A stretch of DNA of 64,000 bases from Candidatus Melainabacteria bacterium 17Bon1m (GTDB lineage: Bacteria; Cyanobacteriota; Vampirovibrionia; Obscuribacterales; Obscuribacteraceae), in assembly GCA_032128875.1 (NCBI GenBank), contig JAVLKG010000007.1:256001-320000 (forward strand), written 5' to 3'. The translations under genes were made by a program, and so were the position numbers. The notes under the pieces are model-generated. The model worked only from the letters and a program-made list of their open reading frames with translations. It ran no database searches and was not told the origin of the DNA. Within the stretch, counting starts at the first letter, position 1; each line of letters opens with the position of its first letter. Below, one piece after another: positions 10,406 through 52,190 of this stretch.

Positions 10406-10737
10406 GTTTTCTTTCCTTGCCGCTCCCCGCTCGCTGCTCTATCGACCGCACCATGGGTGGTGCAGGCATATAGCAGCTTTGTCACGGAGAGCGCGCACTT
10501 ACAAACGAGAGGAGATTGCTGTCCTCCTCAGACGTCAGCAAAAAATTCGTCATTGCACACAACCTGTAGTCATTGCTTACATGAGCGCTCAGGAAGGCGG
10601 CGTCAGTCGTGCCTCACGCTTTTACGCCGCTTGGATTTCGAGGAGGCAAAGCTGGGCGGAGATTCAAACCGACGTAACCGTCGACTTGCACCTCCGCTCC
10701 AGCTCATGAATCGCTTGCGCGTTTAAAACGCAGTCGA

Positions 10738-11175: not shown

Positions 11176-11319
11176 TGGGTTTTTCTCCCGGTAGATTGGA
11201 AGCCCACATTCATGCGGGCTTCGTATGTGTGTTTCAGGATGAAGCTGATGGGCTGAAGCATTTGTCCCGGCTTAGCGCAAAACCGGCTGTTGCACCGGTA
11301 ATGCGCAGTCCGGACAAAC

Positions 11320-12189: not shown

Positions 12190-12330
12190 GTGAGTTTTCC
12201 TTCTTTCCTCGCGTTTTAACCGCGCTGTTGAAAGACATGAGAGCCATGTGGGCTATGTGAGTAGGACCCAAAACGGGACAGGCAGCCTGTTGCCACCTGC
12301 CCCGCTCGGGAGTGCGAATGATGCAGCCGC

Positions 12331-14358
12331 TTAGCCGGCTACTTCCCCGTAGAGGAGGAAGTAGCGCTTCAGCACGTCGTCCGTAGCTGCACCCGGTCCG
12401 AGAGTTTGTCTGCTCACCACTGTGCCGTTGTTGACGCTCAGGGTGACAATCTCGACCTGGATGAGCTTGCCGGAAGATGAATAGCTGAAGACAGCGTCGA
12501 TGATCGGTCGCTGATGCTCATCGAGTTGGCGAATCCGCTCGATTTTGGTCAAAGATGAGTTCGCCGTGTAAATCGTCCGCCCGCCCGGGAAGCCATTCGG
12601 CTCGTAACGGTTGACGATGATGTTGCGACCGCCGTTTTCGGTGGTCACGATGAGCTGGTAGAGGAAACGCTGGCTGGAGCTGAACTCCATGCGGTTGATC
12701 AAGTCACCGCCGGCGGTGGTGCCGTTGACAGTGATGCCGCACGAATGTGTCACCACGTTCCACGTGTACACGCGCCACCGCACTGAGTTGTTCAGGTGCG
12801 GGACGACTAATGCCGGTTCTGTCTTCGTCGTGCTGGTCGAGATGACCGCGCAAGGTGCGGTAGGAACCGTCGGTGTCACCACCGGCGGTTCGGTCCCGAT
12901 AATGGGAGGCACTGTGGTGCCGCCGCCATTGTCACTGCCGTCCTTGCCAGGCCACAGCCTACCAATTGCGAGGATCGCAAGCACGGCCAAGATAAAAACC
13001 AGTATCGCCAGCAAGCCCTTCTTGCCCTTTGGCTTGTCCGGTCCCGGAGGGGGCGGCGGAGGCGGAGGGGGCGGCGGGGGCGGAGGAGGCGGAGGAGGCG
13101 GAGGAGGCGGTGGAGGTGGAGGAGGCGGAGGCGGGTTCTTGCACTCGCAACCGCAGTCCGGCTTGCATGCGCAGGTGCGCTTGCAGCTTTTGCCGCAGTG
13201 GCAGGTGCAGCCGCATTCGTCCGGCTCCAATTTGCCCGGCTTGCGCTTCACCGACATCTTCACGTCAACGGTGAGTTCGTGCTCGCGGGGCGGGCAGTCG
13301 CTTCCGTCCGTGGCTTTGCCACCGGAGTTGACGGTCATCGTCAGTTTGGCTTCCGCCTCTTTGTGCTCGGTCGAGCCGACGTTGCCCATGCGCGAAAGCG
13401 CTTCCTCGGTGCCGATCTTCCCGAACGTTTCCAAAATTCGGTGGAATTCGGCATCGCGCTGACCATCGCTCATCCCGCTTTCACAGCCGTCCTTGGTGGG
13501 CGGTTGTGGTTCGGGTTCGGGCGTCGGTGTCGGCGGCTCAGGAGTGGGCTCCGGGGTGGGGTCCGGCTCAGGCTCGGGCGAAGGGGCAGGCTTCGGTTCG
13601 GGGCTGGGAGCCGGCGTAGGAGCCGGAGTCGGCTCGTCGCCGCACCCACAATCGTCGCTTGCCTTGCACTTCTCGTTGCGCTCGCGATCGGCTTCTGTAG
13701 CCAGTCGCAGGCACTCGATCGCCTGCGTGCGCAAGTCGTCCAGCGTTCCCGAGTTGTCGATAACCCGGTCAGCCAGCGCGACCTTCTGGTCTTGCGGCAT
13801 CTGCACGGCGATGCGTGCGCGAGCTTCGGGCTCGGTGATACCGTTGCGCGTTTCGTCAGCGACGATACGCTTGATTTGCAGCTCCGGGTCGATGATCAGG
13901 CACCACGTTTCGTGGTAGTCGCCGGTCAGCTTCGACTCGTTGAGCAGTGGCACAAGAACAGCAACCTTCTGCGTTTTGGCAGCCTTGGCCCGGGCGCGAG
14001 TAGCGCGACGAATCTCCGGATGGAGAATGGCTTCCAGTTGCTTGCGGGCGTCCGGTTTGTCTTGTGCGAATACGATAGCGGCCAGCTTCTTGCGATTGAT
14101 GGGACCGCCAGGAGCGTCGACGAGGTCGTTGCCAAAGCAAGCGAGAACCTGGTCATACGCGGGATTTGGGGAGTTGAGCAGCTCGTGCGCGATGTGGTCT
14201 GTGTCAAGCACAGTTACACCGAGCGCAGCAAGCGTCTTCCCGAGCGTCGATTTGCCGGCACCCATCACCGAAGTGATGCCGATCAGGTACGGACCATCAC
14301 AATCAGTGCTGCGCGGGCCTTTACCAGCATTCGACAGATGCTCTTCATTTGTGCTCAT
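12331..14358 (-). CDS. coaE: Dephospho-CoA kinase domain fused to a Pro-rich linker, Cys cluster, poly-Pro, TM helix and external domain
   Basis: IGITSVMGAGKST, DTDHIAHEL, INRKKLAAIVF, LEAILHPEI, VPLL.E, ADRVIDNSG in the first ~220 aa; GGAG SD. Confidence 0.85.
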   Translation of the reverse strand: MSTNEEHLSNAGKGPRSTDCDGPYLIGITSVMGAGKSTLGKTLAALGVTVLDTDHIAHELLNSPNPAYDQVLACFGNDLVDAPGGPINRKKLAAIVFAQDKPDARKQLEAILHPEIRRATRARAKAAKTQKVAVLVPLLNESKLTGDYHETWCLIIDPELQIKRIVADETRNGITEPEARARIAVQMPQDQKVALADRVIDNSGTLDDLRTQAIECLRLATEADRERNEKCKASDDCGCGDEPTPAPTPAPSPEPKPAPSPEPEPDPTPEPTPEPPTPTPEPEPQPPTKDGCESGMSDGQRDAEFHRILETFGKIGTEEALSRMGNVGSTEHKEAEAKLTMTVNSGGKATDGSDCPPREHELTVDVKMSVKRKPGKLEPDECGCTCHCGKSCKRTCACKPDCGCECKNPPPPPPPPPPPPPPPPPPPPPPPPPPPPPPGPDKPKGKKGLLAILVFILAVLAILAIGRLWPGKDGSDNGGGTTVPPIIGTEPPVVTPTVPTAPCAVISTSTTKTEPALVVPHLNNSVRWRVYTWNVVTHSCGITVNGTTAGGDLINRMEFSSSQRFLYQLIVTTENGGRNIIVNRYEPNGFPGGRTIYTANSSLTKIERIRQLDEHQRPIIDAVFSYSSSGKLIQVEIVTLSVNNGTVVSRQTLGPGAATDDVLKRYFLLYGEVAG
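13045..13134 (-). repeat. Coding repeat of 30 consecutive Pro codons
   Basis: 90-nt (CCN)30 run using mixed synonymous codons. Confidence 0.95.
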
Positions 14359-37439: not shown

Positions 37440-39701
37440 ATGGTAGAACAAACCTCTGCGCTCGGCAGGGGTCAGCAGTCTGCTGCCCTCGACGTGCCAT
37501 CCAATCAGCCCGAAAAGTCTTCCAACATAATCAATGAATTCGCCTCCGGAGTCTGGCAAGGCTCAGTAACCAACAAGGTGAACGGAGTAGCTCAACTGTT
37601 CGGCGCCGACGTCAAAACGCCGGAAGTAAAACGAAACACCGCACAGACAGTGGCTCACACTGCAGGTGAAGTGACCGGCGACTTGATCGACTTCATGATC
37701 ATGACCAAATTCGCTGGCAACGCTCTCGCCAAATTCGCACCCGAAATCGCAGCAACCAGCAAGGTTGGCGAGTATGTTGCACTCAATCCAGTCGGACGCA
37801 ATATGGCTGTTGGTGGAACAGTGGGTCTCGTCAACGGCATGATCTTGACGCCTACAAAAGAAGGCGAAAGCGGTTGGAACAGACTCGGTCGTGGCGTCAC
37901 AGATGCTGCCACCTTTGCCACTCTTGGTGGTGTCGCTACAAAACTCGCGCCGATGGCTGAAGGAACAGGCTTCATGGGTCGCATGAAGATGAACGCCTAC
38001 TCCGGTGCCGCCGCCGGTGTAGTCAACTCCGAAGTCGATGGTTTGACGCACGGACGTCAGGTCGGGCTCGGTGAGATGGCGACCAACACCGCCGCCTGGA
38101 CACTCGGTAACGTCGCATTCGGTGAAGCACTCCACGGACTCGGCGCTGCCAGCAAGAAATTCATGCCGAAGCATGAGCCTTTCGAAGCTAGCGTGAGCAA
38201 TATGTCTGGTCTGAAAGACTGGGAAGTCAACGTCATGAAACGGGACATCGAAGCTGCCAGAGCCAAGGTTGCTGCCAGCACTGGCGCGTCCGAAGCTGCT
38301 GCAAGCACCGGCGCCACCGCCGAAGCTACAGTGATGAGAAGTGTGGCGCACGAACCGCAAGATCCGAAGTTGCTCGAAGGAATTCGCGCAGCGTCTAAGG
38401 GTCACGTCGAAGACGGACATTCGCATGGCGCCGGCAAAGGCGATTTCAAATCGGTAGTCGAAGAAGGAGCAGCGGTAGATCCTGCCAATCCGCGCCGACT
38501 TCAACCTGGCGAGTCTGCCAAAGTCACTGAAGTAAACGGCGGAGAGCCTGTCGATGGCGCACGCGGTGAGAATACTCTTCCCGCCCTGCGTGTAGCAGTT
38601 GCTCCCAAAGAAGGCGAAGTAAAAGTTGCTGTTGAAGGCGACGCTGCCGGTGCTAAGAAGGGCGAAGGCGTTGAAGGCGAAGTCGCGCAGACAAGAGATC
38701 GCACTCGCAACAACGTCATGCTCGACAAGGGCGAAACCTTGAGTATGAGAGAGCTGTACGCTAAAAATCCTGATGAAGCAGACAAACTACTTGCAGAATA
38801 CATGGGCAAACTCGAGAAAGCATTCCCTCTGGAAGGAGAAATCGAGTCGGCTGCAGTCTACAAAGAGTATCTCACCAAGCCGGGCGGAACCTGGGATATG
38901 GTGGTTCTCAGAGACAAAGCGCAGAACATCGTCGGCGGTATTCAGTATCAAGTCATCGATGTAAACGGTCAGCAGATCGGCAAAGCCGCATGGGGCGAGC
39001 ACATCTGGTTGGATGAAGCTTCCAGAAATGCGCCCAACTTCTACGGCTTGCTCAGCATCGCTCGCGAAAGCATTCAAAAAGCGAAAGGCGAAATCGTCTT
39101 CATGGAGTTCAACAACCCAGATAAGATGAGCGTCGAGCAAATGCTCATGGACGAGGCTGCCGGACTATCTGCCAAAGACAGAGAAAAAATCTGGGGTCGC
39201 ACAGGCATTCACGTGCTCGTGGACAGCAAAGGAAAGGTTCTCGAGTATGGTCAACCGGCGATGTCCTCTGAGGATCCGCCCGTTATGTTCCTCTCGCTCG
39301 GTTTCATCTCGACCAAGCCCCTGGGCGGTCAGATGTTGCCGAAAGAAGACTACCTCAAGCTCATGCATGCCGCACACAAGACCATTCCGTCGGTCAATAT
39401 CGAAACTGACGCGACCGTGAAGTGGTACACCGATGCAGTCAATGCGACGGGCGAAAATGCTTTTACCTATGTTCCGTTGAACGCATTGGGAATTGCTCGC
39501 GAGGCTGGTCAAAAGGCTGCTCAAGAAGCGATGCAGAGAGAAACTGCAAAGCACATCGCCAAAGTAATGAGCACGACAGAGCTGAAGGATGCGATCGCCA
39601 AGCTGGTCGCAGAAAACAGAGCAACGCCGGAAGCGCTGCAAGCTCTCGTCGAGCAAGCTGCATTGCAATCAATGCTGGCTGGCGCACGCAAAGGAAAATA
39701 G
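37440..39701 (+). CDS. Large protein: Gly-rich hydrophobic N-terminus and C-terminal GNAT-like domain
   Basis: AFP..E, IVGG, VFMEF..P, REKIWG, YGQP..PV pattern. Confidence 0.65.
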   Translation: MVEQTSALGRGQQSAALDVPSNQPEKSSNIINEFASGVWQGSVTNKVNGVAQLFGADVKTPEVKRNTAQTVAHTAGEVTGDLIDFMIMTKFAGNALAKFAPEIAATSKVGEYVALNPVGRNMAVGGTVGLVNGMILTPTKEGESGWNRLGRGVTDAATFATLGGVATKLAPMAEGTGFMGRMKMNAYSGAAAGVVNSEVDGLTHGRQVGLGEMATNTAAWTLGNVAFGEALHGLGAASKKFMPKHEPFEASVSNMSGLKDWEVNVMKRDIEAARAKVAASTGASEAAASTGATAEATVMRSVAHEPQDPKLLEGIRAASKGHVEDGHSHGAGKGDFKSVVEEGAAVDPANPRRLQPGESAKVTEVNGGEPVDGARGENTLPALRVAVAPKEGEVKVAVEGDAAGAKKGEGVEGEVAQTRDRTRNNVMLDKGETLSMRELYAKNPDEADKLLAEYMGKLEKAFPLEGEIESAAVYKEYLTKPGGTWDMVVLRDKAQNIVGGIQYQVIDVNGQQIGKAAWGEHIWLDEASRNAPNFYGLLSIARESIQKAKGEIVFMEFNNPDKMSVEQMLMDEAAGLSAKDREKIWGRTGIHVLVDSKGKVLEYGQPAMSSEDPPVMFLSLGFISTKPLGGQMLPKEDYLKLMHAAHKTIPSVNIETDATVKWYTDAVNATGENAFTYVPLNALGIAREAGQKAAQEAMQRETAKHIAKVMSTTELKDAIAKLVAENRATPEALQALVEQAALQSMLAGARKGK

Positions 39702-40176: not shown

Positions 40177-42360
40177 ATGACTGAAAATGCACCCGCGGTA
40201 CGCCATACCGCGAGAACCCACTTTGCGGGTTTTAGATCAGGTGGAGATAGCTCTCTGGGCTCCAGTAGCGCTGGAAGCGATTCTACAGGTTCGGTAAGTG
40301 CCGAAGTCGGTGGCGAATTGACGTCCCTCACGGGCAACCGTCGCTTTGGTCTTCGCAGCAGCGAGAAGGTGGCCAAGGCCGAAACAACTCCAGTCCGCGA
40401 CTGGCGCACCAACAATCTTTTGGCCGAACAAATCGGCGGTGACATGACACTCACGCCGCTTAACGGCGAATACAATTCAATCTACTCGGCGGCAAACCAG
40501 CTCGGCAAAAGAAAAGCTGGGGATCAAGCGACAGCGCAAACAAGCGATCGCGCGGAGCCGAATCTATACGCATTCAACGGCGCCAAGACCGAAGGTAAAT
40601 TCGATCCGAAGAAGTCGGTAGCAGAGCTGCTTACTGATGCTTCCCTTCAAGGCAAGTTGCGCATCGCCGACCAAGTAGCAAATCCGAACGACGCTGCAAG
40701 AATTGCCGATAGGCTCGGACCTGGCGACAAGCCAAACATCAAGGTTGTCTATCAAGATCATTCAGACAACAACCCTAATAAGCCGCAAGCTGATTTCATC
40801 GTCAAGAAAGATGGAACCATTCAGGTCGTCAACGATCATGAAAGAAATCCCGACAAAGAAATCTGCGTTGTTGTTGAACGCGCCAAGGGTGAAACCGACG
40901 CACCGCCGGCAGCACAGCAAAAAGCAACCGACGAACTGGTCGATTACCTTGCGCAAAGACTGACCGACAAATTCCCCTACCCGCAAGGTGTAGGACCTGA
41001 TGGTAAGCCGCTTGCGCAGGTGCCAATCGAAGACAAACAAAATCTTGTTTCAGACAATCTCGAGAAAAAATTCGGCAATGGCAACAAGCCTGAGGCGCCA
41101 AGCTTGCCTCAAGCTCCCGATATGCCGCAGCCCGCACGTGATATGTCTGATGCGATGAATCGTACCGCAGGCAGTGGTGGCAGCCGCAATTTTGATCGCG
41201 GGGCCGTCGATAACAACTACCCGCAACGCGATGTTCCGCAGGCAGTCAATGAATCTAATGCGGTCAATTCAGTGAAGAACGCGGTTGCTTCAGTGTTCCG
41301 CGGAGAGAACGATACTGTTAGAAAACGCAGCGATGGACGTCACCAAGTCGGGCGATACGGCATGAGTTCTGGGCACTTTGGTGGCTGGCTCGGCGACTTG
41401 CTTGGCTTGGATCTCGGTGATCCGCCGGATATGGCTAAACTGCGCGAATTGCTGAAGAATAATCCAGAACTGCGTCAAAAACTTGCTGCGGCAATGAAGA
41501 AAGCACAGCAGGGTGGGCAAGACGGAAAGGGCACCAAGTTGCCTGAAGGATTTGCAGACAAATTCCAAGTCGGTGCCGACGGCAATTTCAAAGATCAGAA
41601 ATTTGTCGATGGCTTCATGAACTTCGGCGACAAGCTATCCGGCACGAAGGGCGACATCACGAGCGCTGAAGTCAATCAGTTCATGCCGAAAGAACTTCAA
41701 GATATCATGGCGACGGATCGCGTCGAGAAGTACGCTCGCGACATGGGTGTTCAAGACCCGAGCAAAATGACCAAAGAGCAAGCCGGCGTTGTTGGCGTCG
41801 CTATGTACCTTGGTCGCATGCCGAATCAACAAGAAATGCAAGATCCTTCGTACCAAAAATACGCTTCGGATTTCGCGAACATGTATCAGATGGACCGCGC
41901 ACGGGCAACCGGTTTGGGCGACGTCAACGTGTCCGATGCCAACGGCAAAATCACTGCTTTGGCAAATGGCATGGTCGGTCAAAGACTGTGGGCTCAGACC
42001 AAGTACCGCAATTCTGTCGAAGGTGGCAACCTGGGTTGCGCCGCGTCCGTGTCGAAGGTTTTGCAAGATGCAGGATTCAGCTACGCTGACTCTGCCGGCG
42101 TTAACGACCTGGCTGCAAAACTGCAAAGACACGGTTGGCAGCGTGTTTCTGTCAATCAAGCTCAACCGGGCGACGTTATCTACGGTATGAGCGGTGCACG
42201 CCACGGTCACATCGGTATTGTCGGACCAAATGGCATTGCTTACAACAACAGCTCAAGAACCGGTCAGTGGACGGCAGGCACAGTGAGCGGGACATTCACC
42301 CGCAGATTTGGCGGCGCCACCACCGTGCTTCGTCCGCCAGATGCCAACCGCGCTGCATAA
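40177..42360 (+). CDS. Multidomain protein with C-terminal NlpC/P60-superfamily peptidoglycan hydrolase
   Basis: LGCAASVSKVL, PGDVI, HGHIGIV; start uncertain. Confidence 0.75.
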   Translation: MTENAPAVRHTARTHFAGFRSGGDSSLGSSSAGSDSTGSVSAEVGGELTSLTGNRRFGLRSSEKVAKAETTPVRDWRTNNLLAEQIGGDMTLTPLNGEYNSIYSAANQLGKRKAGDQATAQTSDRAEPNLYAFNGAKTEGKFDPKKSVAELLTDASLQGKLRIADQVANPNDAARIADRLGPGDKPNIKVVYQDHSDNNPNKPQADFIVKKDGTIQVVNDHERNPDKEICVVVERAKGETDAPPAAQQKATDELVDYLAQRLTDKFPYPQGVGPDGKPLAQVPIEDKQNLVSDNLEKKFGNGNKPEAPSLPQAPDMPQPARDMSDAMNRTAGSGGSRNFDRGAVDNNYPQRDVPQAVNESNAVNSVKNAVASVFRGENDTVRKRSDGRHQVGRYGMSSGHFGGWLGDLLGLDLGDPPDMAKLRELLKNNPELRQKLAAAMKKAQQGGQDGKGTKLPEGFADKFQVGADGNFKDQKFVDGFMNFGDKLSGTKGDITSAEVNQFMPKELQDIMATDRVEKYARDMGVQDPSKMTKEQAGVVGVAMYLGRMPNQQEMQDPSYQKYASDFANMYQMDRARATGLGDVNVSDANGKITALANGMVGQRLWAQTKYRNSVEGGNLGCAASVSKVLQDAGFSYADSAGVNDLAAKLQRHGWQRVSVNQAQPGDVIYGMSGARHGHIGIVGPNGIAYNNSSRTGQWTAGTVSGTFTRRFGGATTVLRPPDANRAA

Positions 42361-42458: not shown

Positions 42459-42640
42459 CATGTACTCCGAAAAAAACTGGTTTTTCGGAGTACATGCTTT
42501 TGTGAGATTGGGCGCTGGTAAGGCTTTTGGTAATCGGCTTTTTTGAGCGCGCCCGCATAGATTTTTGGATTGTCAGCCTGTGGGCGTCTTAGGCTCGCGC
42601 ATCCACTCCGAAAAACCGGGATTTTTCGGAGTGGATGCGC
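42459..42640. repeat. Pair of related long palindromes
   Basis: 42459-42496 and 42597-42640 share the ACTCCGAAAAA..TTTTTCGGAGT core. Confidence 0.85.
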
Positions 42641-42692: not shown

Positions 42693-43682
42693 ATGGTTTC
42701 TGAAAAACTTACAGAGTATTCGGTAAACGTAATGGCGTTGGCGCGCATGGAAGCCGAACGCACCGGCAGCGCGAGTGTTGATGTTGAACATATTTTTTTG
42801 GGTCTGCTAGGCGAGGCGTATGGTGTTGCGTCTGAGGTGTTGCGCAAGAATGGACTTCAATTGCACGGTGTTCGAGAGCAAATGTGCGAACAAACAAAAG
42901 AAGAACGTTTGGCTCAAAAAGGCAATTATTCTTTCAGCATTAAAGCTGCGAAAATCCTCAATTCTGCGCTTGAATTTGCGGTTCAAATGGAGAATGAAAA
43001 CATAGACACAGAGCACCTCTTGCTTGCTGTTCTTGCGGAAAAGAATTGGAAAGTTCAGAGAATATTTGACGACTTTGGGGTTGACGCAAATAGGTTGCGC
43101 AGTGATGTTGGGAAGGTTGTGCATGAGCGAGAGTTGAATCCGGCATCCGCTGAGGATGCTGGTTTTGAAGAAGCGCCTCGCAAGAAGAGAGCAATATCTC
43201 CGACCGCGGAGTATTCTTGGCCTTCTACAACGCCGATGTTCTCTCACTTTAATGACTCTGCGATTAAAGTGGTTATGAGGGCGCAAGAAGAAGCAAGGCG
43301 CCTCGGCCACAATTTTGTTGGTACGGAGCAGCTATTGCTTGGTGTTATACCGGACAATGGTTTAGCGGGTAAAGTATTTCGAGATTTAGGCATCACCCTT
43401 ATTGCTGCTCGTCGTGAAGTTGAGAAAATCATCGGACACGGTTCTGGTTTTGTTGCTGTAGAAATACCTTTCACTCCGCGTGCCAAGGGGCTTTTGGTCG
43501 GTGCAATAGACGAAGCTCGCAGTCGTGGTTCTGAAATAATCGGAGCAGAACATATTTTGCTGTCGTTACTCGCCGAGGAAAATTGTGTTAGTACTCATGT
43601 CTTGCAAAATCTAGATGTGGACGCTGGAAAAGCCCGTGGAAACTTGCACAATGCTATGCGACGACCTGTTGTGGATGAGTGA
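42693..43682 (+). CDS. Clp N-terminal-domain-only protein (2 N-domains)
   Basis: [43 protein letters not shown]; no Walker A/B. Confidence 0.9.
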
Positions 43683-44526
43683 CTCAATGTTCGATAAATT
43701 CAGCAAGGATGCAATTAAAGTGGTCATGCAAGCGCTTGATGAGGCGCGCGTGTTTAAGCACAAAGAAGTAGGATCAGAGCATCTGCTTCTGGGTGTTTTC
43801 GCCTTTTGTGGCGATTCTATTTCGAAGGGTTTTCCGTACCTGGAAGGTGTCGATCTCGATCAACTGCGTGATGCAGTTAGAAATGTGAATCCGAAGGGCT
43901 CCAAAGCTAGCCCCGCCGAGCTTCCATTTAGTGACGAAGCCAAGGAGATACTCGTAAGTGCTTATCAAAAGTCTGGTCACAGCTTGATTTACTCACGACA
44001 CATTTTACTTTCGATGCTTGATAAGCAGAATAGTGTTGGAGTAAAGGTTCTCGAAATGCTTGGCGTTGACCTGGCTCCAGGAGCCGGGGGAAGCGAAGAC
44101 GAGCAGTCCGCAGCTGTCCTTAAATGTGCTCGGGAGGAGGCTCGAAGACTCGGACACAATTTTGTAGGTACTGAGCAGATTTTGCTCGGATTGATACTTT
44201 GCAGGGGAAGTGTCGGCGCGGTTTTAAGTAGGTTTGGAATTGAGGTTGGGTGGGCTCGACAAGAAGTCGAAAAGATCATTGGTCGCGGCTCTGGTTTTGT
44301 GTCCGTCGAAATTCCATTCACTCCGCGAGCCAGGAAAGTGCTGGAATTTGCCTGGGATGAGGCTCGTCAACTAGGACACAATTACATTGGAAATGAACAT
44401 TTGATGCTTGGGATTCTTCGTGATGATACCAGCGTTGCGGCTCAGATTTTGAAAGCGGCTCAAGTCAACACCGAGGAATTAAGAGCTGCTATCCTTGCTC
44501 TTTTCGATCAGCCAGAGGAAGCGTGA
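43675..44526 (+). CDS. Clp N-terminal-domain-only protein (2 N-domains)
   Basis: [53 protein letters not shown]; start overlaps the previous stop (43687 is an alternative). Confidence 0.9.
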
Positions 44527-44535
44527 GGCGATTCC

Positions 44536-45444
44536 GTGTTCGATAAATTTAGCAAGGATGCAATCAAAGTGATTATGCAAGCGCAGGAAGAAGCGCGCAT
44601 GCTGAAACAGCAAGAAGTAGGTTGCGAGCATTTGCTACTGGGAGCTTTTGCTTCTGAAGTGGATTGTTTGCCTGTAGAGTCTGCCAACTCTCGTGACGGT
44701 ACCCTAGAGAAACTTAGGGCTTCGTTTTCGCAACGAGTGAAGAAGGGCGCCAAGCCTAGCCCGAAAGAATTACCGTTTGACGATGATGCAAAGCGCGTGC
44801 TAGTCAGTGCGTATCAAATTTCAGGGCACAAAACGATTTGTGCAAGTCACATTTTTCTGGCGCTGTTTGATTTTCCAGCAATACTGAATGTCTTTCGCGA
44901 TACGAAAATTGACGCGAACGAGTTGCGCTACGCCCTGGTTTATCAAACGCAATTCCACGGGGGGCTGCAAGTTGTTGATGGTTCCTCTGTTTCGCAGCAA
45001 GAAGCCATGGAGCTCTGTCGAGATATCTCAGATGTGATTAGCTTTGCAGTTGCTGAAAGACATAATTTCAAGCAGAAGCATTTGAGTTCTGAGCTCCTTT
45101 TGCTTGGACTTATTCATGCTGGTGGCATGCCCGCTAAAATTTTGGAGAACGCTGGAGTTACGCTGGATTCGGCGCGCGAGCATTTTGTGAAACTGATTGG
45201 TGAAGCTGCTGAACCAGCAGTGGTGGAAGTAAAACTGCAGTTTACTCCGCGTGCCAAGAAGCTATTGCACAATGCCAAGGAAGAAGCGTTTCAGTTGGGA
45301 CAGGATAAACTGAAAGGACTGCACCTTTTGCTCGGATTCACCCATGAGCAAGATGGTGTTGCTTGGCAAGTCTTGCGAGAAAATGGCGTAGATTTAGCAG
45401 CATTGCGAGCGTCTGTGCTAGCTTTATTTGAGGAGACACGTTAG
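44536..45444 (+). CDS. Clp N-terminal-domain-only protein (2 N-domains)
   Basis: [38 protein letters not shown]. Confidence 0.88.
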   Translation: MFDKFSKDAIKVIMQAQEEARMLKQQEVGCEHLLLGAFASEVDCLPVESANSRDGTLEKLRASFSQRVKKGAKPSPKELPFDDDAKRVLVSAYQISGHKTICASHIFLALFDFPAILNVFRDTKIDANELRYALVYQTQFHGGLQVVDGSSVSQQEAMELCRDISDVISFAVAERHNFKQKHLSSELLLLGLIHAGGMPAKILENAGVTLDSAREHFVKLIGEAAEPAVVEVKLQFTPRAKKLLHNAKEEAFQLGQDKLKGLHLLLGFTHEQDGVAWQVLRENGVDLAALRASVLALFEETR

Positions 45445-45455
45445 GGATTTCGCTG

Positions 45456-45905
45456 GTGTTAAAAAACTACACTGAAAGAGCTACATACTCGATTCGGCGG
45501 GCTGAGGAAGAGTCGCGTAAGATGCGACATAACTACATCGGCACTGGCATGATTCTTCTTGGAATTTTGGAAGAAGGCGGCGCGGCAAGTCGGCTACTCA
45601 ATAGTTTTGGTATTACCTACGCGGCTGCACATGAAGAGCTTGAAGCGCTCATTGGGCGAGGCTCTGGTAATCTCGCGGCTGACATTCCGTTTTCACCAAA
45701 TGCGCAAGAGGCACTGGCATTTGCGCGCAAAGAAGCAGAGTCTCGAGAGATAAAAGATGTCGCTGTTCCGCATCTGCTTTATGCGTTGCTGCATGGTAAA
45801 GATACAATGGCTATGCGCGTTTTCGATGTGATGGGAATCAACTTTGATGTGATCAGAAAAAAGGTTGCTGAAGAACTCGATAAGAATTACGGCTCGCGAA
45901 ATTAG
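45456..45905 (+). CDS. Clp N-terminal-domain-only protein (1 N-domain)
   Basis: YTERA, HNYIGT, IGRGSG, IPFSPNA, HLLYALL. Confidence 0.88.
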   Translation: MLKNYTERATYSIRRAEEESRKMRHNYIGTGMILLGILEEGGAASRLLNSFGITYAAAHEELEALIGRGSGNLAADIPFSPNAQEALAFARKEAESREIKDVAVPHLLYALLHGKDTMAMRVFDVMGINFDVIRKKVAEELDKNYGSRN

Positions 45906-45925: not shown

Positions 45926-46195
45926 CTATTTCTTCCGGTCGAACTCTTGATAGGCTGCGCTGTCATTACGGTTTCCGACGACTGTGACATACAGCACAGA
46001 CGAATCAAATCGATAGATAATGCGAAATTCTCCAACGTCTTTCCGGAAATGTTTGCCGTTTCCCATTGATATTGAATCAGTGGGACGTGGTTCATCGCAC
46101 AACTCAGTAATTGCTTTTAGTATCTGCAAAAACTGTTTGTTGTCGCGCTTTTTCAAGAAACGCATTGCGTCATTTGTTAGGTCTGGTTTTAGCAT
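45926..46195 (-). CDS. RelE/ParE family toxin
   Basis: 89 aa; PRP..S, FRKDVGEFRIIY, VGNR; overlaps the antitoxin. Confidence 0.88.
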   Translation of the reverse strand: MLKPDLTNDAMRFLKKRDNKQFLQILKAITELCDEPRPTDSISMGNGKHFRKDVGEFRIIYRFDSSVLYVTVVGNRNDSAAYQEFDRKK

Positions 46196-46442
46196 CGCGA
46201 GTCAGTTTTTCCTTGATGAAACTGGCAGTCGCTTCGGTACCAATGTAACCAGTCTTTTCTGCTACTTCGATTCGTGCCAACCAATAGTCGTTTTCAAGCT
46301 GCATCAGATGCTCGTAATCGGCCTGAGCGATCATAACTGCAACAGGGCGGCCATTTTTCTCGATTGAGATTGGCTCCTTTTGTGCCGCGGCAATCGCTTC
46401 ACTCGTTTTGTTTTTTAGTTCTGTTGCGGTGATTCGTTTCAT
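46170..46442 (-). CDS. Phd/YefM family antitoxin
   Basis: ITATELKNK, PISIEKNGRPVAVMI. Confidence 0.9.
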   Translation of the reverse strand: MKRITATELKNKTSEAIAAAQKEPISIEKNGRPVAVMIAQADYEHLMQLENDYWLARIEVAEKTGYIGTEATASFIKEKLTRDAKTRPNK

Positions 46443-46482: not shown

Positions 46483-46513
46483 CTATTTTGTTCAAAATAG
46501 CTATTTATGTCAA
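46483..46513 (-). promoter_or_regulatory. TA promoter with overlapping palindromic operator
   Basis: Minus strand TTGACA-17 nt-CAAAAT; CTATTTTG-TT-CAAAATAG palindrome at 46483-46500. Confidence 0.55.
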
Positions 46514-46578
46514 ATTTATTGCACCGCCTGACTTTTGGGGTTTAACCTGGATACTAAGCGTGATAGTAATACGAGGGG

Positions 46579-46625
46579 CAAAAAAAGAGGTGTCGCGTGT
46601 AGATTGCTCCACAAACGACACCCCT
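46579..46625 (-). terminator. Rho-independent terminator of the icd operon
   Basis: Minus strand GGGGTGTCG...CGACACCTC followed by TTTTTTT. Confidence 0.75.
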
Positions 46626-46729
46626 TTGCCAGGTTTGGCTGAAACTCCATCAACCTGACGCTTCATGTGGTTAGTCTAAAGCGATGCGTCAGGTTGACGT
46701 GTCAGCGTGCCGAGGGCTCAGCTTGAGCT

Positions 46730-47083
46730 TTAGCCAGCATTCGCGTCCAGCTCGGCGATGAGGCGCTCGAGCTTTTCGACGCGTTTGCAAGCGGCGGTAT
46801 ACGCACCCTGCGCGGCCGCATAGCGGACGCGATAGGGATTGTGCCGATAGCCCCATTTGAAGCTCGAGTAGAGCCTCGTCATGTGGGCGCGGTGCTCGCG
46901 AGCGACTGCGCGATCGGTCTTCGCCTTGATGAGTGCCTCGCGCCGTTCGGCGGAGTTCATCGCACGGAAGCGAGCCGTTTCGGCTTCGTCAGCCTTGCGG
47001 TACTCGCGTTCGAGGTAGAAGTGAAAACCGACCAGCGCCGCTACAGGGAGCAGCGCGGCGGCGATGATGAAGATTGTGGTCAT
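46730..47083 (-). CDS. Single-TM hypothetical protein
   Basis: GGGAG SD; N-terminal TM; helical basic tail. Confidence 0.7.
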   Translation of the reverse strand: MTTIFIIAAALLPVAALVGFHFYLEREYRKADEAETARFRAMNSAERREALIKAKTDRAVAREHRAHMTRLYSSFKWGYRHNPYRVRYAAAQGAYTAACKRVEKLERLIAELDANAG

Positions 47084-47099
47084 GTTGTTATGCTCCCGT

Positions 47100-47678
47100 T
47101 CAGAGTGTGAGTTCGTAGCAATTGAGCACGCGCTTGCGACCCTTGTACGTTCCGACCTGCTTGAAGCCGAAGCGAGGGTAGTAGGCGTTGCTGCGCATGC
47201 CGATTGGTGTCTTGAGCGCGACTTTCTCCATGCCGCGTTTACGCGACGCGGTAATCAGTTCGGTGAGGAGAAAGCTGCCGATGCCGCTGCTCTGCATGTC
47301 TTCGGCAACGCCGATTTCATGAAGAGTGGTGGCACCATCTTGGCGGTGGTAGGCGCGCAAGAAGGCGACGATGCGCCCGTCTGCGTCGACCACCACGCGA
47401 ATGCGGTGTTGCGATTTCTCGCCGTCGGCGTTTTGATTTTTCACCGCGTCTTCGACCACCACCCTCGGCAGATAGCCGAAGGATGCGCGATTGTTCTTGC
47501 TGTTGATGATCTTGCGGATGCCGACGTAGTCTTCGACCTGGGCGTCACGCACCGTCAACTTCGTCGAGATTGTCTTCGAAGCGTTAGTTGCGCCTGTCCG
47601 GATCGTCGTCGGCAGCTTGCTGCGATGGGCGATGCAGGAAGGCCCACCAGCAAGAAGTCCGAGTTTTGATTTCGCCAT
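47100..47678 (-). CDS. GNAT family N-acetyltransferase
   Basis: EIGVAEDMQSSGIGSFLL motif A; SNAYYPRFGF motif B; AGGAG SD. Confidence 0.88.
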   Translation of the reverse strand: MAKSKLGLLAGGPSCIAHRSKLPTTIRTGATNASKTISTKLTVRDAQVEDYVGIRKIINSKNNRASFGYLPRVVVEDAVKNQNADGEKSQHRIRVVVDADGRIVAFLRAYHRQDGATTLHEIGVAEDMQSSGIGSFLLTELITASRKRGMEKVALKTPIGMRSNAYYPRFGFKQVGTYKGRKRVLNCYELTL

Positions 47679-47693
47679 TGTCGTCTCCTCTGG

Positions 47694-48332
47694 TTAGCCT
47701 TCGAGCGCCGCTGCGAGCATGCGGTCGTAGGTGACGCGCCGTTCGTAGTCCGTCTTGGGCGGGTTGTAGGGCAGCGCATCCGTGTAGATACGGGCGAAGT
47801 CGCCGGCTTGCGCCTTGCGAATTCGAGCGTTCCACACCTTGATGAGCTGGGCGGCGCAGGCGTCGGGCAGCGGTTCGCGGCGAGTGCGAAACTTGCTGGC
47901 GAAGCGACCCATCCAGCCGTTGCGGCGGACGTTCTCGAAGATTTGAACAATCTCGGGCACGTCGCTCACGCCGGCGGTGCTGATGATGAAGGGCGCCTTC
48001 TCATAGCGGAACGGCATGGTGCTGCCGTTTGCGCCGGGGGCGTCGGAATTTTGTGCGACTTGCCAGCGAATCTCGCTGCGATCGGAGTAGGGAAACGGTG
48101 TCACCGGCGGTGTCAGGTAAACCAGCTTGAAGCCGGCGTCACCACCCTGGACAAACGCGATGCGAGCGCCTTTCAGCTCGTGCACCTTCTTGGGGTGCAT
48201 GAGGTTGGTCTTGTGGCATCCGGTCAAACCGAAGCTGCCGAATTCCCAAAAGGGATCCGAGCGCATCTCGGTGGGGCGCTCCATGTGCGGCTGCCGGAGC
48301 AGCGCGACGAGCACTGTCTGCTTCTTGGGCAT
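47694..48332 (-). CDS. Uncharacterised protein (RSDPFWEFGSFGLTGCH motif)
   Basis: GGAGAG SD; GC3-rich; operon position. Confidence 0.75.
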   Translation of the reverse strand: MPKKQTVLVALLRQPHMERPTEMRSDPFWEFGSFGLTGCHKTNLMHPKKVHELKGARIAFVQGGDAGFKLVYLTPPVTPFPYSDRSEIRWQVAQNSDAPGANGSTMPFRYEKAPFIISTAGVSDVPEIVQIFENVRRNGWMGRFASKFRTRREPLPDACAAQLIKVWNARIRKAQAGDFARIYTDALPYNPPKTDYERRVTYDRMLAAALEG

Positions 48333-48435
48333 GTTTCTCTCCATGAGTTTGTTATGAAAGGAGAGCCACCGCGACTTAACGCGATGGCTCTCGGTTACTT
48401 AGACAAACCGCACAGAGAGGCGCTCTGCGCGATTA

Positions 48436-49989
48436 CTACGCTTCTTTGGCGGCGTTTTCGCCCACCTTCTCCACCTTCTCGGCGACCTTCTCGGCGACGA
48501 TGACGCCGGTCGTGTCCGGGAATGGCACCGCCGCACCGAGCTTTCCGTCTGCATCTTCGAGCAGCCAGCAGTGCCCGTTGTAGCGGTTTTCCTCGATCCA
48601 CGGATTGAGGTAGCTGTCGCAGTGCACGACTTTGTAGCCGAGCGCGACCAGCTCTTTGTGCCATTCGTCGGTGGTCCAGACGCCGAACTCCTCGTTGACT
48701 TCCATCGCCCAGTTGGCGAGGTAGTCTTTCTTCGAGAGGAATTCGTTGGCTTCGTGCAGCGTCATGCGGAAGTGCGTGACGCCGTCGAAGACTCGCTCGT
48801 CGTAAGCGAAGCCGGGTTTCGCCGACTTGCCTTTGAACTCGCGGGCGAACTTGCGGAAGCGCTCCTCGAGTTCTGCGTCCTTGCAACGCAGCCAAACAAG
48901 GCGGTCGCCGTTTTCTGGTTTCACACCATCGCGAATGATGATGCGCCCACCCACCATCAGTTCCAACCAGGCGTTCTTCAACGCCAGCCGGATCTGGTCA
49001 CGGTCGTAGCCGTTGTACGAGTACACCTCGTGCATGACCGACGAGAAGATGATGGTCGACACCGTCCCTTCAGCGAAGCGCTTGTGGATGATGTTGCCCA
49101 TCACAACTGCGACGTTGTGGTTGGGATAATGCTGACCTTCCGAGCGGTGCAGCAGGTCACGCGACAGGTCCATGCCGACGATCTGCGCCTTCGGATAGAG
49201 GTTCGACAGATGAATCAGCAGGGTGCCAGTGCCGCAGCCTTTGTCGACGATGTAGCCGCCGACAATCCAGGGGCAAATGTCCTGAATCTTCACCGATAAG
49301 CTGGCGTCCATGCCCTCGCTGTAGACGGCGAAGTCACGACCGTGCGACAGTTCGCCGTCGTCGTTGAGCAGCACGTCGCTGAAGAGCGTAGCGATACGCT
49401 CTTCGACTTGGTGGCTTTCGAAGACCGCAGCAGTCTCTGCCGTTGCCAGCTTTCGCCAGTCGCCGCGAGTCGCCACTGCCTGAAGCAGGTCGATGGGCAG
49501 CTTGCCGGCGGTGCTGGGCACGATCGCCTTGTAACCCGCTTTGGCGAAGTGCTTGTTGACGTCCGCGTTGGACGAGACGAGCACCGTGTTGGCGGGCGTG
49601 AGGACGGTCGTTTCGTCCGACTCCGACTTCACGACGTCGCAGATGTGCGCCGTCCAAGCCAGTGAATCGGGGATATCCGCGGCAGCATGGATTTCGTACG
49701 GGCGCCCGAGCTTCTTCGCGAAGCCCTCAGCGATGAGCTTGCGCTCGTTGCTGTAGAGCGGGTGCCGCTTGGTGCCGCCTTGCCCGTCCGCCGTGATGAC
49801 GAAGACCAGCTTGCCGGGAACGTGCTTGAGGGCACGCTTGAGCGAGCGTTCCTGGTCTTTGGTGACGCCATGCCAGCGTCCCACGAGGAGCAGATACTCG
49901 GGCTTCACGCCGAGGGCTGCGGTTATCGCCGTGCCGAGAGCTCCCTTCGGAGCGGGTCGGGGCGATTTCTTTACATGAGTCGTGCGCAT
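48436..49989 (-). CDS. Nucleotidyltransferase-like domain fused to class I SAM methyltransferase
   Basis: N-terminal VGRWH..T and TKRHPL...ER (NadM-like layout); C-terminal VDKGCGTG, GMDLS, SSVMHE, GGRIIIRDG; CAGGAG SD. Confidence 0.8.
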   Translation of the reverse strand: MRTTHVKKSPRPAPKGALGTAITAALGVKPEYLLLVGRWHGVTKDQERSLKRALKHVPGKLVFVITADGQGGTKRHPLYSNERKLIAEGFAKKLGRPYEIHAAADIPDSLAWTAHICDVVKSESDETTVLTPANTVLVSSNADVNKHFAKAGYKAIVPSTAGKLPIDLLQAVATRGDWRKLATAETAAVFESHQVEERIATLFSDVLLNDDGELSHGRDFAVYSEGMDASLSVKIQDICPWIVGGYIVDKGCGTGTLLIHLSNLYPKAQIVGMDLSRDLLHRSEGQHYPNHNVAVVMGNIIHKRFAEGTVSTIIFSSVMHEVYSYNGYDRDQIRLALKNAWLELMVGGRIIIRDGVKPENGDRLVWLRCKDAELEERFRKFAREFKGKSAKPGFAYDERVFDGVTHFRMTLHEANEFLSKKDYLANWAMEVNEEFGVWTTDEWHKELVALGYKVVHCDSYLNPWIEENRYNGHCWLLEDADGKLGAAVPFPDTTGVIVAEKVAEKVEKVGENAAKEA

Positions 49990-50137
49990 AGTTTTTCTCC
50001 TGCAAAGGAATACGGCATTTTCGTGCCGAATTAGACACGACACCGATGGAGCAAATTCATCGCTGAACTTGCAACCATCGGGTCGTATCCGGTGGTCGTC
50101 CTGGCGGACCTGACGACCACCCGGTCGCAGGCTCGCC

Positions 50138-51448
50138 TTACTTGCGAATCGCCTTCTTGCCCTTCAGCGCGGCTTCCACCGTGCGTCGGGTCGGCTTCAC
50201 CATGTTGGCGATGACCGCGTCCGTGAACTTCACCGTGCCGACCTGGTTGCCGTTCTTCATGAACCGCGCCAGATCTCCGGTGGCAGTCTTCGAACGCAGC
50301 GTCTTCTCGATGGCGCGAGTGACGCACACGGCGGCCTCGTCCCAGTCGATGTACTCCAGCATCATGACGCCGGAGAGGGTGAGCGAGCAGGGGTTCGAGA
50401 TACCCTTGCCGGCGATGTCGGGCGCGGTGCCGTGCGTGGCTTCGAACATGGCGCTCTTGGCGCCGATGTTGGCGCCCGGAGCGATGCCCAGTCCGCCCAC
50501 TTGACCGGCTGCGTCGTCCGAGATGTAGTCGCCGTTGAGGTTCGTGGTCGCGATGACCGAGAACTGAGTCGGCTTGCAGAGCAGCTCGTAGAACGTGGCG
50601 TCGGCGATGCGGTGGTTGAGCAGGATCTTGCCTTCCGGCAGCTTGCCGCCATGCACCTTCCAGAGGTCGTCCTCCGACACCATGATGTCGCCGAACTCCT
50701 CAGCCGCAAGCTCCAGACCCCACTTCAGGAACGCGCCTTCGGTGTGCTTCTGGATGTTGCCCTTGTGTACGATGGTCACGACTTTGCGGCCATGGTCGAT
50801 GGCGAACTCGATTGCTGCACGCACGATGCGGCGCGAAGCATACTTCGAAATCGGCTTGATGCCGATGCCGGAGTCTTCGCGGATTTCGTGACCGTACTTG
50901 CGAGCAACGGCGATGATCTCTCGCGCGCCTTCGGAGCCGGCCTCGAACTCGATGCCCGCATACACGTCTTCCGTGTTCTCGCGGAAGATGACCACGTCCA
51001 GGTCCTGCGGGCGCTTCACCACGGACACGATGCCCTTGAAGTAGCGCACAGGACGGACGCAGCTGTACCAGTCGAAGTGCTGGCGCATGGTCACGTTCAG
51101 GCTGCGGATGCCGCCGCCGGTGGGTGTGCCGAGTGGTCCCTTCATGCCGATGCCGTAGTAGTCGAGCATCTCCAGGGTTTCGGCCGGCAGGGGGCTGCCG
51201 AACTTCGCCACTGCTGCGTCACCAGCGTAAGCCGGCAACCAGGTGATGCTTCGTTTGTCGCCATAGCATTTCGCCACGGCGGCGTTGATGATGCGACGAG
51301 TCGCTTCCGAGATTTCCGAGCCGATGCCATCGCCGTCGATGAACGGAATGATGGGGCGGGTCGGTTTCACGGCTTTGCCGTCCACGAGCTGGATGATTTC
51401 ACCAGCCGGGGCGGGCTCGCCGTAGAACTTTCTGACAGGTTTTGACAT
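50138..51448 (-). CDS. icd: Isocitrate dehydrogenase, homodimeric, NAD-type signature
   Basis: IPFIDGDGIG, TPTGGGIRSLNV, RENTEDVYAGIE, VHKGNI, NLNGDYISD, EATHGTAPDIAG. Confidence 0.95.
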   Translation of the reverse strand: MSKPVRKFYGEPAPAGEIIQLVDGKAVKPTRPIIPFIDGDGIGSEISEATRRIINAAVAKCYGDKRSITWLPAYAGDAAVAKFGSPLPAETLEMLDYYGIGMKGPLGTPTGGGIRSLNVTMRQHFDWYSCVRPVRYFKGIVSVVKRPQDLDVVIFRENTEDVYAGIEFEAGSEGAREIIAVARKYGHEIREDSGIGIKPISKYASRRIVRAAIEFAIDHGRKVVTIVHKGNIQKHTEGAFLKWGLELAAEEFGDIMVSEDDLWKVHGGKLPEGKILLNHRIADATFYELLCKPTQFSVIATTNLNGDYISDDAAGQVGGLGIAPGANIGAKSAMFEATHGTAPDIAGKGISNPCSLTLSGVMMLEYIDWDEAAVCVTRAIEKTLRSKTATGDLARFMKNGNQVGTVKFTDAVIANMVKPTRRTVEAALKGKKAIRK

Positions 51449-51851
51449 TTTTCGGACTCCTTTCGTCAGAGTTTTTCAACGAAGAACAGTTGGTCCGTTG
51501 TGACTCGCGTAAGGACGCGCGAGCTGAACAACGGACCGGACAGGCTTTCAGCTAATGGTCGATAGTCAACGCTCGGAGGAATACCCGAGAGAATTGCCGA
51601 AACGATGGTTGGGACTACGTTGTCGGTGTTTGTCTGACTAAAAGCTCCAAGAGTTGAAAGAAAAGAGATACAGCTATGACCCTAGTAGGTTTTAGGCAAT
51701 GTCAAGCAATGCTTATTGCCTAATAATTTACGCAAGCCCGCGCGAAACTTTGAAATCTTAGATTTCTGGGTTCACTTAGCTGCGATAGCTCTTTGAACTG
51801 GGCTAAGTTGAGCTGGTCTTAAGAGAGGTCTAGGGTGGGTATCATGTTGGC

Positions 51852-52190
51852 ATGTTGCCAGCCAATCGCGACCCTTCTGAAAACAATTCCGTCGGTTTTC
51901 CGCTTCCCGCTGAAACGCGTCGGCTATCTGTCTCCTTGCGAAATTTCAATGCTGTTGTGGTGGTAATTTTGCTGTCGGTGGCCGTTTGGTATTGCAACCA
52001 AATTCATATCTGGGAACTCGGAAAGGGCACTATTTGGGCATTTTTTTTGCATCGATACTGGGGCATAATCCCAATAGTTTTTGCGGTGTTGCCGGTAGCG
52101 GCATGGAGCGTGCCGATGCTCTATCTGCAAGACAAAGCGCAGAAGAAAAAACTGATCGTTGAATATCGCGATATTCCAAAACTTCGATAA
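51852..52190 (+). CDS. Small membrane protein, two TM helices
   Basis: Two hydrophobic segments. Confidence 0.45.
   Translation: MLPANRDPSENNSVGFPLPAETRRLSVSLRNFNAVVVVILLSVAVWYCNQIHIWELGKGTIWAFFLHRYWGIIPIVFAVLPVAAWSVPMLYLQDKAQKKKLIVEYRDIPKLR

Follow-up and report, generated by a model that had tools for sequence, protein, structure and literature searches.

An apparent operon of motor-less ClpC-type N-domains at a divergence hot spot in an uncultured Obscuribacteraceae bacterium

What is the role of a gene array that consists only of copies of the N-domain, the ligand-receiving part of ClpC, in a bacterium that also encodes ClpC itself? The question is raised by four genes at positions 42693–45905 (+ strand) of the window, i.e., the whole stretch of 64,000 nucleotides (positions 256,001–320,000 of contig JAVLKG010000007.1) from Candidatus Melainabacteria bacterium 17Bon1m, an uncultured and non-photosynthetic member of the family Obscuribacteraceae (Melainabacteria), related to cyanobacteria and represented by a metagenome-assembled genome (MAG) of 7.55 Mb in 35 contigs, with a completeness of 93.2%. 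An original prediction had taken the genes for an array of N-domain proteins that serve as adaptors or decoys of ClpC. To our knowledge, motor-less copies of the ClpC N-domain have been known only as single genes, namely those of actinobacterial ClpC2/ClpC3 and plastid ClpT. Among such receptor-domain proteins, the array is notable for its multivalency, its variation in copy number, and its contrast with a frozen ClpC, and its sequence argues that the four genes form a genuine operon for motor-less N-domains of the ClpC type that is maintained by purifying selection. In the following, genomes are referred to by G-codes (G000 is the window's own genome) and the loci compared by L-codes; the genes are labeled g1 to g4, and their N-domains are assigned to classes 1A, 1B, 2A/3A, 2B, 3B, and 4 (A, first domain; B, second domain), with 2A and 3A counted as one class, which gives six classes for seven domains.

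All four genes encode a single type of domain. Two Clp_N repeats (PF02861) of ~53 residues each make up one N-domain of ~145 residues. In Pfam searches, g1 to g4 matched Clp_N with E values of 3.7e-44, 4e-41, 2.4e-25, and 2.1e-21 (4, 4, 3, and 2 repeat stretches, respectively), all above the cut-off of 20.7 bits; g3 showed an additional match to DUF630 below the threshold. A hidden Markov model (HMM) of the whole N-domain, trained on ClpC and ClpB of the host and on two single-domain proteins, recognized seven complete N-domains in the predicted 2+2+2+1 arrangement and, together with the Pfam result that Clp_N is the sole family above threshold, bears out the claim that the proteins contain nothing else. 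Matches to NCBIfam models were confined to the N-terminal parts of ClpB, ClpA, and ClpK and fell far under the cut-offs. The predicted lack of a motor, whether as Walker A/B motifs or as a hidden AAA+ module, held as well: the array proteins have neither Walker A/B motifs nor AAA families in the Pfam scan, the genome-wide search for AAA_2 had no match at the region, and the motor part of ClpC (residues 161 to end) had no tblastn match to the array region in any frame at E ≤ 10. Without an AAA+ module, the array does not qualify as an Hsp100/Clp AAA+ unfoldase.

Sequence and predicted structure indicate ClpC as the source of these domains. All seven are closer to the N-domain of the host ClpC (32–59% identity) than to that of ClpB (19–27%), and the evident ancestor, judged from the sequences, would be the ClpC N-domain. 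The second domains of g1 and g2, which had been singled out as tracking ClpC, are indeed the most similar ones (1B, 58%; 2B, 59%); the other five, including 1A with 32%, range from 32% to 40%. The best matches among sequences in the PDB are ClpC N-domains (E = 4.8e-44 for g2 and 1.3e-26 for g4). The fold was assessed for g3, the two-domain protein with the strongest divergence, whose AF2 model (mean pLDDT 79.4) consists of two helical N-domains connected by a linker of low confidence. Foldseek placed N-domains of ClpC and ClpC1 on top, with TM scores (normalized to the target) of mostly 0.84–0.88 and in some cases 0.75–0.82, and with root-mean-square deviations (rmsd) of 1.4–2.5 Å (3.5 Å in one case). 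The structures on which the model superposes include ClpC N-domains in complex with phospho-arginine, MecA, YjbA, and four classes of antibiotics (cyclomarin, rufomycin, ecumicin, and lassomycin), whereas those of ClpD, ClpT2, and ClpC2 rank far below (ClpT2 in 44th place).

According to the list of open reading frames (ORFs) of the window, the four genes are co-oriented and tightly packed. The first gene (g1; 42693–43682, +; 329 aa) encodes domain 1A (aa 1–143; 42693–43121) and domain 1B (aa 182–322; 43236–43658), separated by a charged linker of 38 aa. It is followed by g2 (43687–44526, +; 279 aa), in which a linker of 6 aa joins 2A (aa 1–131; 43687–44079) to 2B (aa 138–273; 44098–44505). 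The most likely start of g2 is the ATG at 43687 rather than an in-frame ATG upstream (43615), because the N-terminus that begins there is common to g3 and all orthologues. Both g3 (44536–45444, +; 302 aa) and g4 (45456–45905, +; 149 aa) start with GTG; the former contains 3A (aa 1–135; 44536–44940), a 25-aa linker, and 3B (aa 161–298; 45016–45429), the latter a single class-4 domain (aa 1–141; 45456–45878) and the C-terminal tail EELDKxYGxR. With g2 beginning at 43687, the intergenic gaps amount to 4, 9, and 11 nt. The two longer gaps had been correctly predicted, but the overlap postulated between g1 and g2 exists only if the upstream start of g2 is used. A purine-rich, Shine-Dalgarno-like motif lies within the 3′ end of each upstream array gene; together with the short gaps, this is the layout expected of a translationally coupled operon. 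The transcription unit should end after g4, because the genes downstream are convergent. The proteins have no signal peptide according to their sequences, and the G+C content of the array (47–49%) matches the genome mean of 49–50%.

The genes are evidently maintained. Comparison with two congeners comprised seven gene–genome pairs, five of which gave dN/dS ratios (dS was saturated for g1 against G007 and for g4 against G011); these were 0.07 for g1 (against G011), 0.14 for g2, 0.27–0.30 for g3, and 0.13 for g4. With all ratios below 1 and all frames intact, purifying selection, on which the original prediction depended, is apparent. In trees of 51 and 64 domains, the six classes are each monophyletic, together with the orthologues of related genomes. 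The predicted tandem duplication of g2 and g3 is supported by the sister position of 2A and 3A in these trees and by the similarity of the 5′ DNA of the two genes, where 51 and 44 of 60 nucleotides are identical in the first two 60-nt blocks (overall 0.64, compared with a maximum of 0.54 in 50 shuffles).

The classes differ in the residues at the positions of the ClpC motifs FTEKA, VGTEQ, FTPRA, and IGTEH, which we take to line the ligand pocket. The assignment of pocket residues follows in part section 8 of PMC13345244. All motifs quoted in the original prediction are present (GTEQ/FTPRA in 1B, GSEH/FSDEA in 2A, GCEH/FDDDA in 3A, and YTERA/GTGM in g4), and they do differ from domain to domain. 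The complete ClpC signature, GTEQ/FTPRA/xEH, is found in domains 1B and 2B, and both pocket glutamates are retained in all orthologues of these ClpC-like classes (10/10 and 6/6, respectively). They are also retained in 11 of 12 representatives of class 1A, which has a signature of its own (LTEYS/VDVEH/FSxKA/IDTEH). The second glutamate is kept in three of nine representatives of class 2A/3A and in none of the seven of class 3B, and class 4 (FTERA/GTGM/FSxNA/VAVPH) has replaced both in all nine orthologues, combined with an invariant C-terminal EELDKxYGxR and a total of 45 invariant positions among 149 columns (13 sequences). The presence of six conserved classes with different pocket residues agrees with the diversified panel that had been proposed. 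By contrast, the notion that the domains other than 1B and 2B have simply drifted has to be abandoned: each class maintains its signature across orthologues, so the differences would represent specializations rather than drift.

The array occupies a variable slot within an otherwise stable region. The neighborhood of 36–52 kb is wholly syntenic in relatives, and the slot is bounded on one side by the gene for a 727-aa protein, whose C-terminus resembles CHAP/Amidase_5, and on the other by a convergent block that encodes a 117-aa protein, a GNAT protein, a 216-aa protein, and a methyltransferase. Across ten distinct loci, the slot contains between one and five genes: one in L059/L060, three in G006 and G002, at least three in G004 (where the contig ends), four in G000, G011, G009, and L061, and five in G007 and L062. 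Wherever a related locus extends to the downstream flank or to the end of the array, the class-4 gene is present and occupies the last position. G006, G002, L061, and L060 lack g2, of which only the B domain remains in G007; in G009, the order is swapped, with the g3 type preceding the g2 type. Outside the genus, the loci of relatives retrieved with g1 were mostly true clpC genes.

The same slot also stands out as a sharp hot spot of divergence. When G000 is compared with G011, the flanking proteins are 89–99.5% identical, whereas g1 to g4 reach 85, 78, 53, and 57%. Nucleotide identity is 88–98% in the flanks and drops from 84% to 55% within the array, and dS rises from 0.12–0.45 in the flanks to between 0.9 and saturation. 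Within the genus, array copies differ by 15–47%, and in the protein database, g4 has one relative with 97% identity and no other above 61%. The ClpC of the host stands in contrast: its first 560 residues are 99–100% identical within the genus, and its N-domain is 100% identical in all eight genomes of the same family among the 12 compared and 91–98% identical in the other four, which are more distant; in 13 sequences, 123 of its 145 columns do not vary. The increase of dS along with dN suggests that the alleles are old or were acquired by exchange with diverged lineages; whatever the cause, the array locus is treated differently from its surroundings. A toxin–antitoxin pair of the Phd/YefM type (45926–46442, −), in which the antitoxin gene (46170–46442) overlaps a toxin-like ORF of 89 aa (45926–46195), lies directly after g4. 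The pair is absent from this position in G011 and is located inside the array in G009 (L041 3782–4424; toxin 93% identical).

N-domain multivalency is not restricted to this locus and, judged from gene content, appears to be a trait of the family, more pronounced in other genera than in that of G000. In a profile search over 61 genomes of Obscuribacteraceae, three loci were then inspected. In G194, two genes for proteins of 619 aa (four N-domains) and 523 aa (three N-domains) immediately precede a complete clpC and share its strand. In G218, genes for proteins of 372, 166, 547, and 1620 aa, with 2, 1, 3, and 9 N-domains (15 in total), are followed by two ORFs and clpC, all on one strand; the intervening, co-oriented ORFs (L081 5685–9061; 546 and 579 aa) have no Pfam match. 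The third locus, in G231, encodes proteins of 361, 151, and 1750 aa that carry 2, 1, and 10 N-domains. Pfam detects only Clp_N in the giant proteins of 1620 and 1750 aa, and their domains correspond one to one between the two genera, with one or two ClpC-like domains (45–65%) and the rest strongly diverged (21–36%). While these giants are polyproteins, the array of G000 is arranged as an operon. Gut-associated Melainabacteria have 9–14 Clp_N repeat matches per genome, and at least two of them (G031 and G037) encode ORFs of ~455 aa that are spanned by N-domain matches.

Motor-less N-domain proteins are widespread beyond the family. A search with g1 returned at least 5925 proteins of 180–576 aa at E ≤ 0.001; the named matches belong to cyanobacteria, Ktedonobacteria, and one ClpA-like entry of a plant, and their best annotation is "Clp protease N-terminal domain-containing protein". 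Ten of the 120 listed homologues were re-scanned and comprised fusions to TIR_2, EAD1, EAD7, AAA_16, Roadblock/LC7, zf-C4_ClpX, and UVR; labels of PF18152 on such homologues were spurious overlaps with Clp_N. The Pseudarthrobacter plasmid pPA-B-2242 has four genes with the same annotation within 4.3 kb, which, in distinction to the array, are interspersed with other genes. Motor-less N-domain genes occur also in the Mycobacterium phages Myrna (gp251; L078) and Phabba; the Myrna protein is annotated as "Clp family protein, ATPase domain", but it matches the N-domain only (38% identity to g2) and, with 235 aa, is too short for a motor. The thousands of Clp_N-only proteins in the database and the four-gene cluster on the plasmid limit the uniqueness that the original prediction had implied. 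Its remark that no such array was known to be described stands: a full-text search of the literature found no description of motor-less N-domain gene arrays or of proteins with multiple N-domains, with the reservation that supplementary tables may list further architectures.

Several known systems suggest what the array might do. ClpC2 and ClpC3 are described as motor-less proteins that share the ligand site of ClpC1 and compete with it for ligands; ClpC2 acts as a sponge for cyclomarin and rufomycin and binds phospho-arginine, and the holding of marked proteins has been proposed for the small mycobacterial Clp proteins (passages of PMC10030653, PMC13345244, and PMC10864484). Homology to the ClpC receptor domain and the lack of a motor are features that they share with the array proteins. 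However, ClpC2 is encoded by a single gene in another phylum, combines one N-domain-like module with an N-terminal dimerization part, and represses its own promoter, whereas the array comprises four genes with one or two N-domains each and no other module and thus does not share the ClpC2 architecture of a dimerization or regulatory part followed by a single C-terminal module. Since true ClpC N-domains match the array sequences better (E = 4.8e-44) than ClpC2 does (E = 7.7e-15), array and ClpC2 would be independent derivations and not orthologues. Stand-alone N-domain-like proteins are also found in plastids, where ClpT1 and ClpT2, reported as unique to algae and plants, bind to the ClpP ring (PMC7966870, in part); they belong to a Clp system of cyanobacterial descent. 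Each ClpT is a single-domain protein, and the matches are weak (ClpT1, E = 1.3e-06 with g2 and 1.6e-10 with g4; ClpT2, 1.9e-04 with g4). The N-domain of the host ClpC has the same fold as the array domains but is joined to two AAA+ modules and is frozen, while the array copies diverge.

The analogy to ClpC2 and ClpC3 and the linkage to clpC in two genera are the reasons for which we tentatively favor the reading that the array provides trans-acting, motor-less paralogues of the ClpC receptor domain that bind ClpC-type ligands, although this falls somewhat short of an even chance. A single, translationally coupled operon would yield four cytoplasmic proteins that display seven ClpC-type N-domains and nothing else, and each domain class may bind its own ligand via the surface with which ClpC contacts adaptors, degrons, and cyclic peptides. 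Domains 1B and 2B probably share ligands with ClpC and would therefore compete with it as a sponge, decoy, or holdase, whereas the diverged classes (1A, 2A/3A, 3B, and 4) probably recognize other partners. Overall, the proteins would buffer, hold, or sort the molecules that arrive at ClpC, in the manner of ClpC2/ClpC3 but expanded to a multivalent panel of several genes. Multivalency, with seven domains in this array and up to ten per chain elsewhere, may provide avidity for ligands that are oligomeric or carry several marks. Candidate ligands are ClpS, which is encoded by a single gene beside clpA, adaptors yet unnamed, and foreign factors. That the proteins bind ligands, compete with ClpC, and have any effect on physiology is inferred by analogy to the characterized proteins.

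Some observations speak against a receptor-domain role in trans. The only constant member of the slot, the class-4 gene, lacks both canonical pocket glutamates, so class 4 cannot simply duplicate the ClpC pocket. The host clpC (G000 C7:116431–119205) is ~180 kb away from the array, and N-domain genes within ~13 kb of clpC were encountered in only two genomes among the matches listed for the 61-genome sample. A McsB-type arginine kinase (PF00217) had no match in G000 (93.2% complete), with Bacillus subtilis as a positive control, which makes a phospho-arginine degron an unlikely ligand here. The regulatory, DNA-binding part of ClpC2 is absent from the array. Three sequencing runs labeled as RNA, which contain 99% of the sampled words, behave like DNA and give no evidence of transcription: their contigs over the region are 16–17 kb long, their longest records reach 72–148 kb, and the genes of both strands are evenly covered.

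The Clp system of the host itself is rich in N-domains. G000 has ClpC, ClpB, one ClpS, a ClpA that is split in the assembly, and a second ClpC-like ATPase with a degenerate N-domain. There are five further motor-less N-domain ORFs (G000 C3:258773–259981; C2:780480–780905; C4:29067–29858, 144627–145046, and 377733–378173), in addition to the detached ClpA N-domain ORF, and the number of Clp_N repeat matches is 26, compared with 4–14 in 150 other genomes sampled across the phylum. One of the further ORFs (403 aa) combines two N-domains with a hydrophobic C-terminal tail and looks membrane-anchored; another (264 aa) has an N-domain and a C-terminal part without an assigned family. In the clpS–clpA operon (G000 C2:698588–701444), ClpA is represented by an N-domain ORF of 176 aa and a motor ORF of 666 aa in a different frame; intact ClpA of congeners has 822–841 aa, and the split is either a frameshift or an assembly error. 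The second ClpC-like double-AAA+ ATPase (G000 C7:239358–241820) lies ~16 kb before the window, and the Clp_N model fails to match its first 150 residues, which have diverged too far. It was considered as a companion of the array and dismissed, as their co-occurrence is uninformative: orthologues with at least 86% identity are present in 6 of 12 congeners, whose MAGs are incomplete, and are 47–58 kb from the array when both are on one contig.

A different explanation of the panel would be conflict, with mimics of the ClpC receptor trapping or detecting the factors by which phages or competitors hijack ClpC, in the course of an arms race. We regard this as possible but rather unlikely. It would account for the divergence hot spot, where array proteins are only 53–85% identical between flanks of 89–99.5% and one to five genes occupy the slot of ten loci while the ClpC N-domain is frozen, and it is consistent with the insertion of the toxin–antitoxin pair next to (G000) or within (G009) the array, with the fusions of g1 homologues to TIR_2, EAD1, EAD7, and AAA_16, and with motor-less N-domain genes on phage Myrna and actinobacterial plasmids. 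Rare variants of vWA-MoxR conflict systems contain ClpN repeats (Kaur et al. 2020; PMC7159879, in part), and phage SPO1 has an adaptor-like protein, Gp53, that targets ClpC (PMC6873191, in part). As in the array, the N-domain pairs of the conflict systems come without a Clp motor and presumably serve as recognition module. However, the proteins of these systems and those fused to TIR, EAD, or AAA_16 carry effector or adaptor domains, whereas no effector domain is present in or beside the array, and the nine proteins scanned against PADLOC-DB (g1, g3, g4, and six neighbors) matched none of its families. Moreover, dN/dS is below 1 throughout, the pocket signatures are conserved within each class instead of hypervariable, and the elevated dS is better explained by recombination or by alleles of old age than by positive selection alone. 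It seems similarly doubtful that Obscuribacteraceae generally maintain a frozen ClpC receptor together with a library of mimics in fast turnover, comprising operons of one to five genes and polyproteins of up to ten domains, as innate decoys or sensors of ClpC hijackers. If this were true, the panels would parallel, in bacteria, the "integrated decoy" logic of plant immune receptors, and the relatives fused to TIR or EAD would be their signaling versions.

The remaining alternatives loosen the tie to ClpC or replace it by another one. Proteins that employ the N-domain fold simply as a scaffold or for general peptide binding would explain why five of the seven domains share only 32–40% identity with ClpC, why N-domains are fused to unrelated modules such as Roadblock/LC7 and TIR, and why the array does not adjoin clpC in G000, but the 58–59% identity and the full ClpC signature of 1B and 2B, the arrays near clpC in G194 and G218, and the homologues fused to Clp parts (zf-C4_ClpX and UVR) make a complete lack of functional ties to Clp improbable. 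Plastids descend from the cyanobacterial lineage, and an accessory protein that, like the motor-less ClpT1 and ClpT2 on the plastid ClpP ring (PMC7966870, in part), docks on a ClpP/ClpR core and aids its assembly or substrate delivery would therefore not be out of place. Yet the matches to ClpT (E = 1.9e-04 to 1.6e-10) are far inferior to those to ClpC N-domains (1e-26 to 5e-44), ClpT2 is only the 44th structure for the g3 model, and a variable panel of one to five genes is a poor fit for a core assembly factor; in addition, the comparison of cyanobacterial and plastid Clp systems in the portion of PMC7966870 consulted lists ClpT for plastids only and no N-domain-only component for cyanobacteria. 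Overall, a ClpT-like role appears quite unlikely. Chaperone, immunity, or regulator partners of the 727-aa protein encoded upstream are very improbable: in all 11 related loci that extend far enough upstream, its gene is found ahead of the array in the same orientation, but with the whole region of 36–52 kb syntenic, adjacency says little, two terminator-like palindromes separate the units, the protein remains 72–97% identical while the array changes from one to five genes, and the array proteins lack a signal peptide. That the genes are decaying remnants of a duplicated clpC is hardly credible; ClpC-derived domains without a motor are what pseudogenization might leave, but the frames are intact, dN/dS is 0.07–0.30, orthologues with class-specific invariant residues occur in at least ten loci, and there is no AAA remnant in any frame.

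The tentatively favored reading, receptor-domain paralogues that act in trans, is of interest because the ClpC N-domain is a hub for adaptors, degrons, phage factors, and several classes of antibiotics. A whole bacterial family carries diversified, multivalent panels of this domain, with up to 10 per protein and 15 per locus; their turnover far exceeds that of the remaining genome, in contrast to an unchanged ClpC. If they compete with or feed ClpC, they would constitute a new layer of control in regulated proteolysis and a natural catalog of altered pockets; if they are decoys, they would point to ClpC-targeting molecules in these habitats that have yet to be recognized. If correct, the reading would also provide a working hypothesis for the unannotated proteins that consist of Clp_N only and number in the thousands in cyanobacteria and Chloroflexota.

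The surroundings of the array have features of their own. Upstream are two large A-rich genes (37440–39701, 753 aa; and 40177–42360, 727 aa, the latter on the strand of the array), which are kept across the genus with dN/dS of 0.03–0.14; in a direct comparison, their products are not paralogues of each other. Both were considered as partners of the array and set aside on the grounds given above. The C-terminal part of the 727-aa protein is a Cys-His domain similar to CHAP, Amidase_5, and NlpC-P60; its only Pfam match is a weak one to Amidase_5, and its neighbors in the Atlas are peptidoglycan hydrolases (score only 0.80). Two palindromes lie between this gene and g1. The first (42459–42496), recovered by a terminator scan and by direct reading, is terminator-like, with a 16-bp stem and a T-rich tail, and would mark the upstream limit of the array's transcription unit; the second (42600–42638), of the same family, follows at a distance of 55 nt from g1. 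The transcription unit before the array probably terminates at these palindromes. They were also considered as operators, as in the clpC2 promoter, and rejected because they are members of a dispersed, REP-like family with 15 copies in the genome, whose core, CTCCGAAAAA-N6-7-TTTTTCGGAG, forms a stem of 16–19 bp and is often flanked by CATCCA/TGGATG. The contigs of the three RNA-labeled runs all break at the second palindrome, whereas the contig of the DNA run spans it. Elsewhere in the window, the G+C content of positions 6000–14000 and 46500–52000 is 57–62%, which is above the genome mean.

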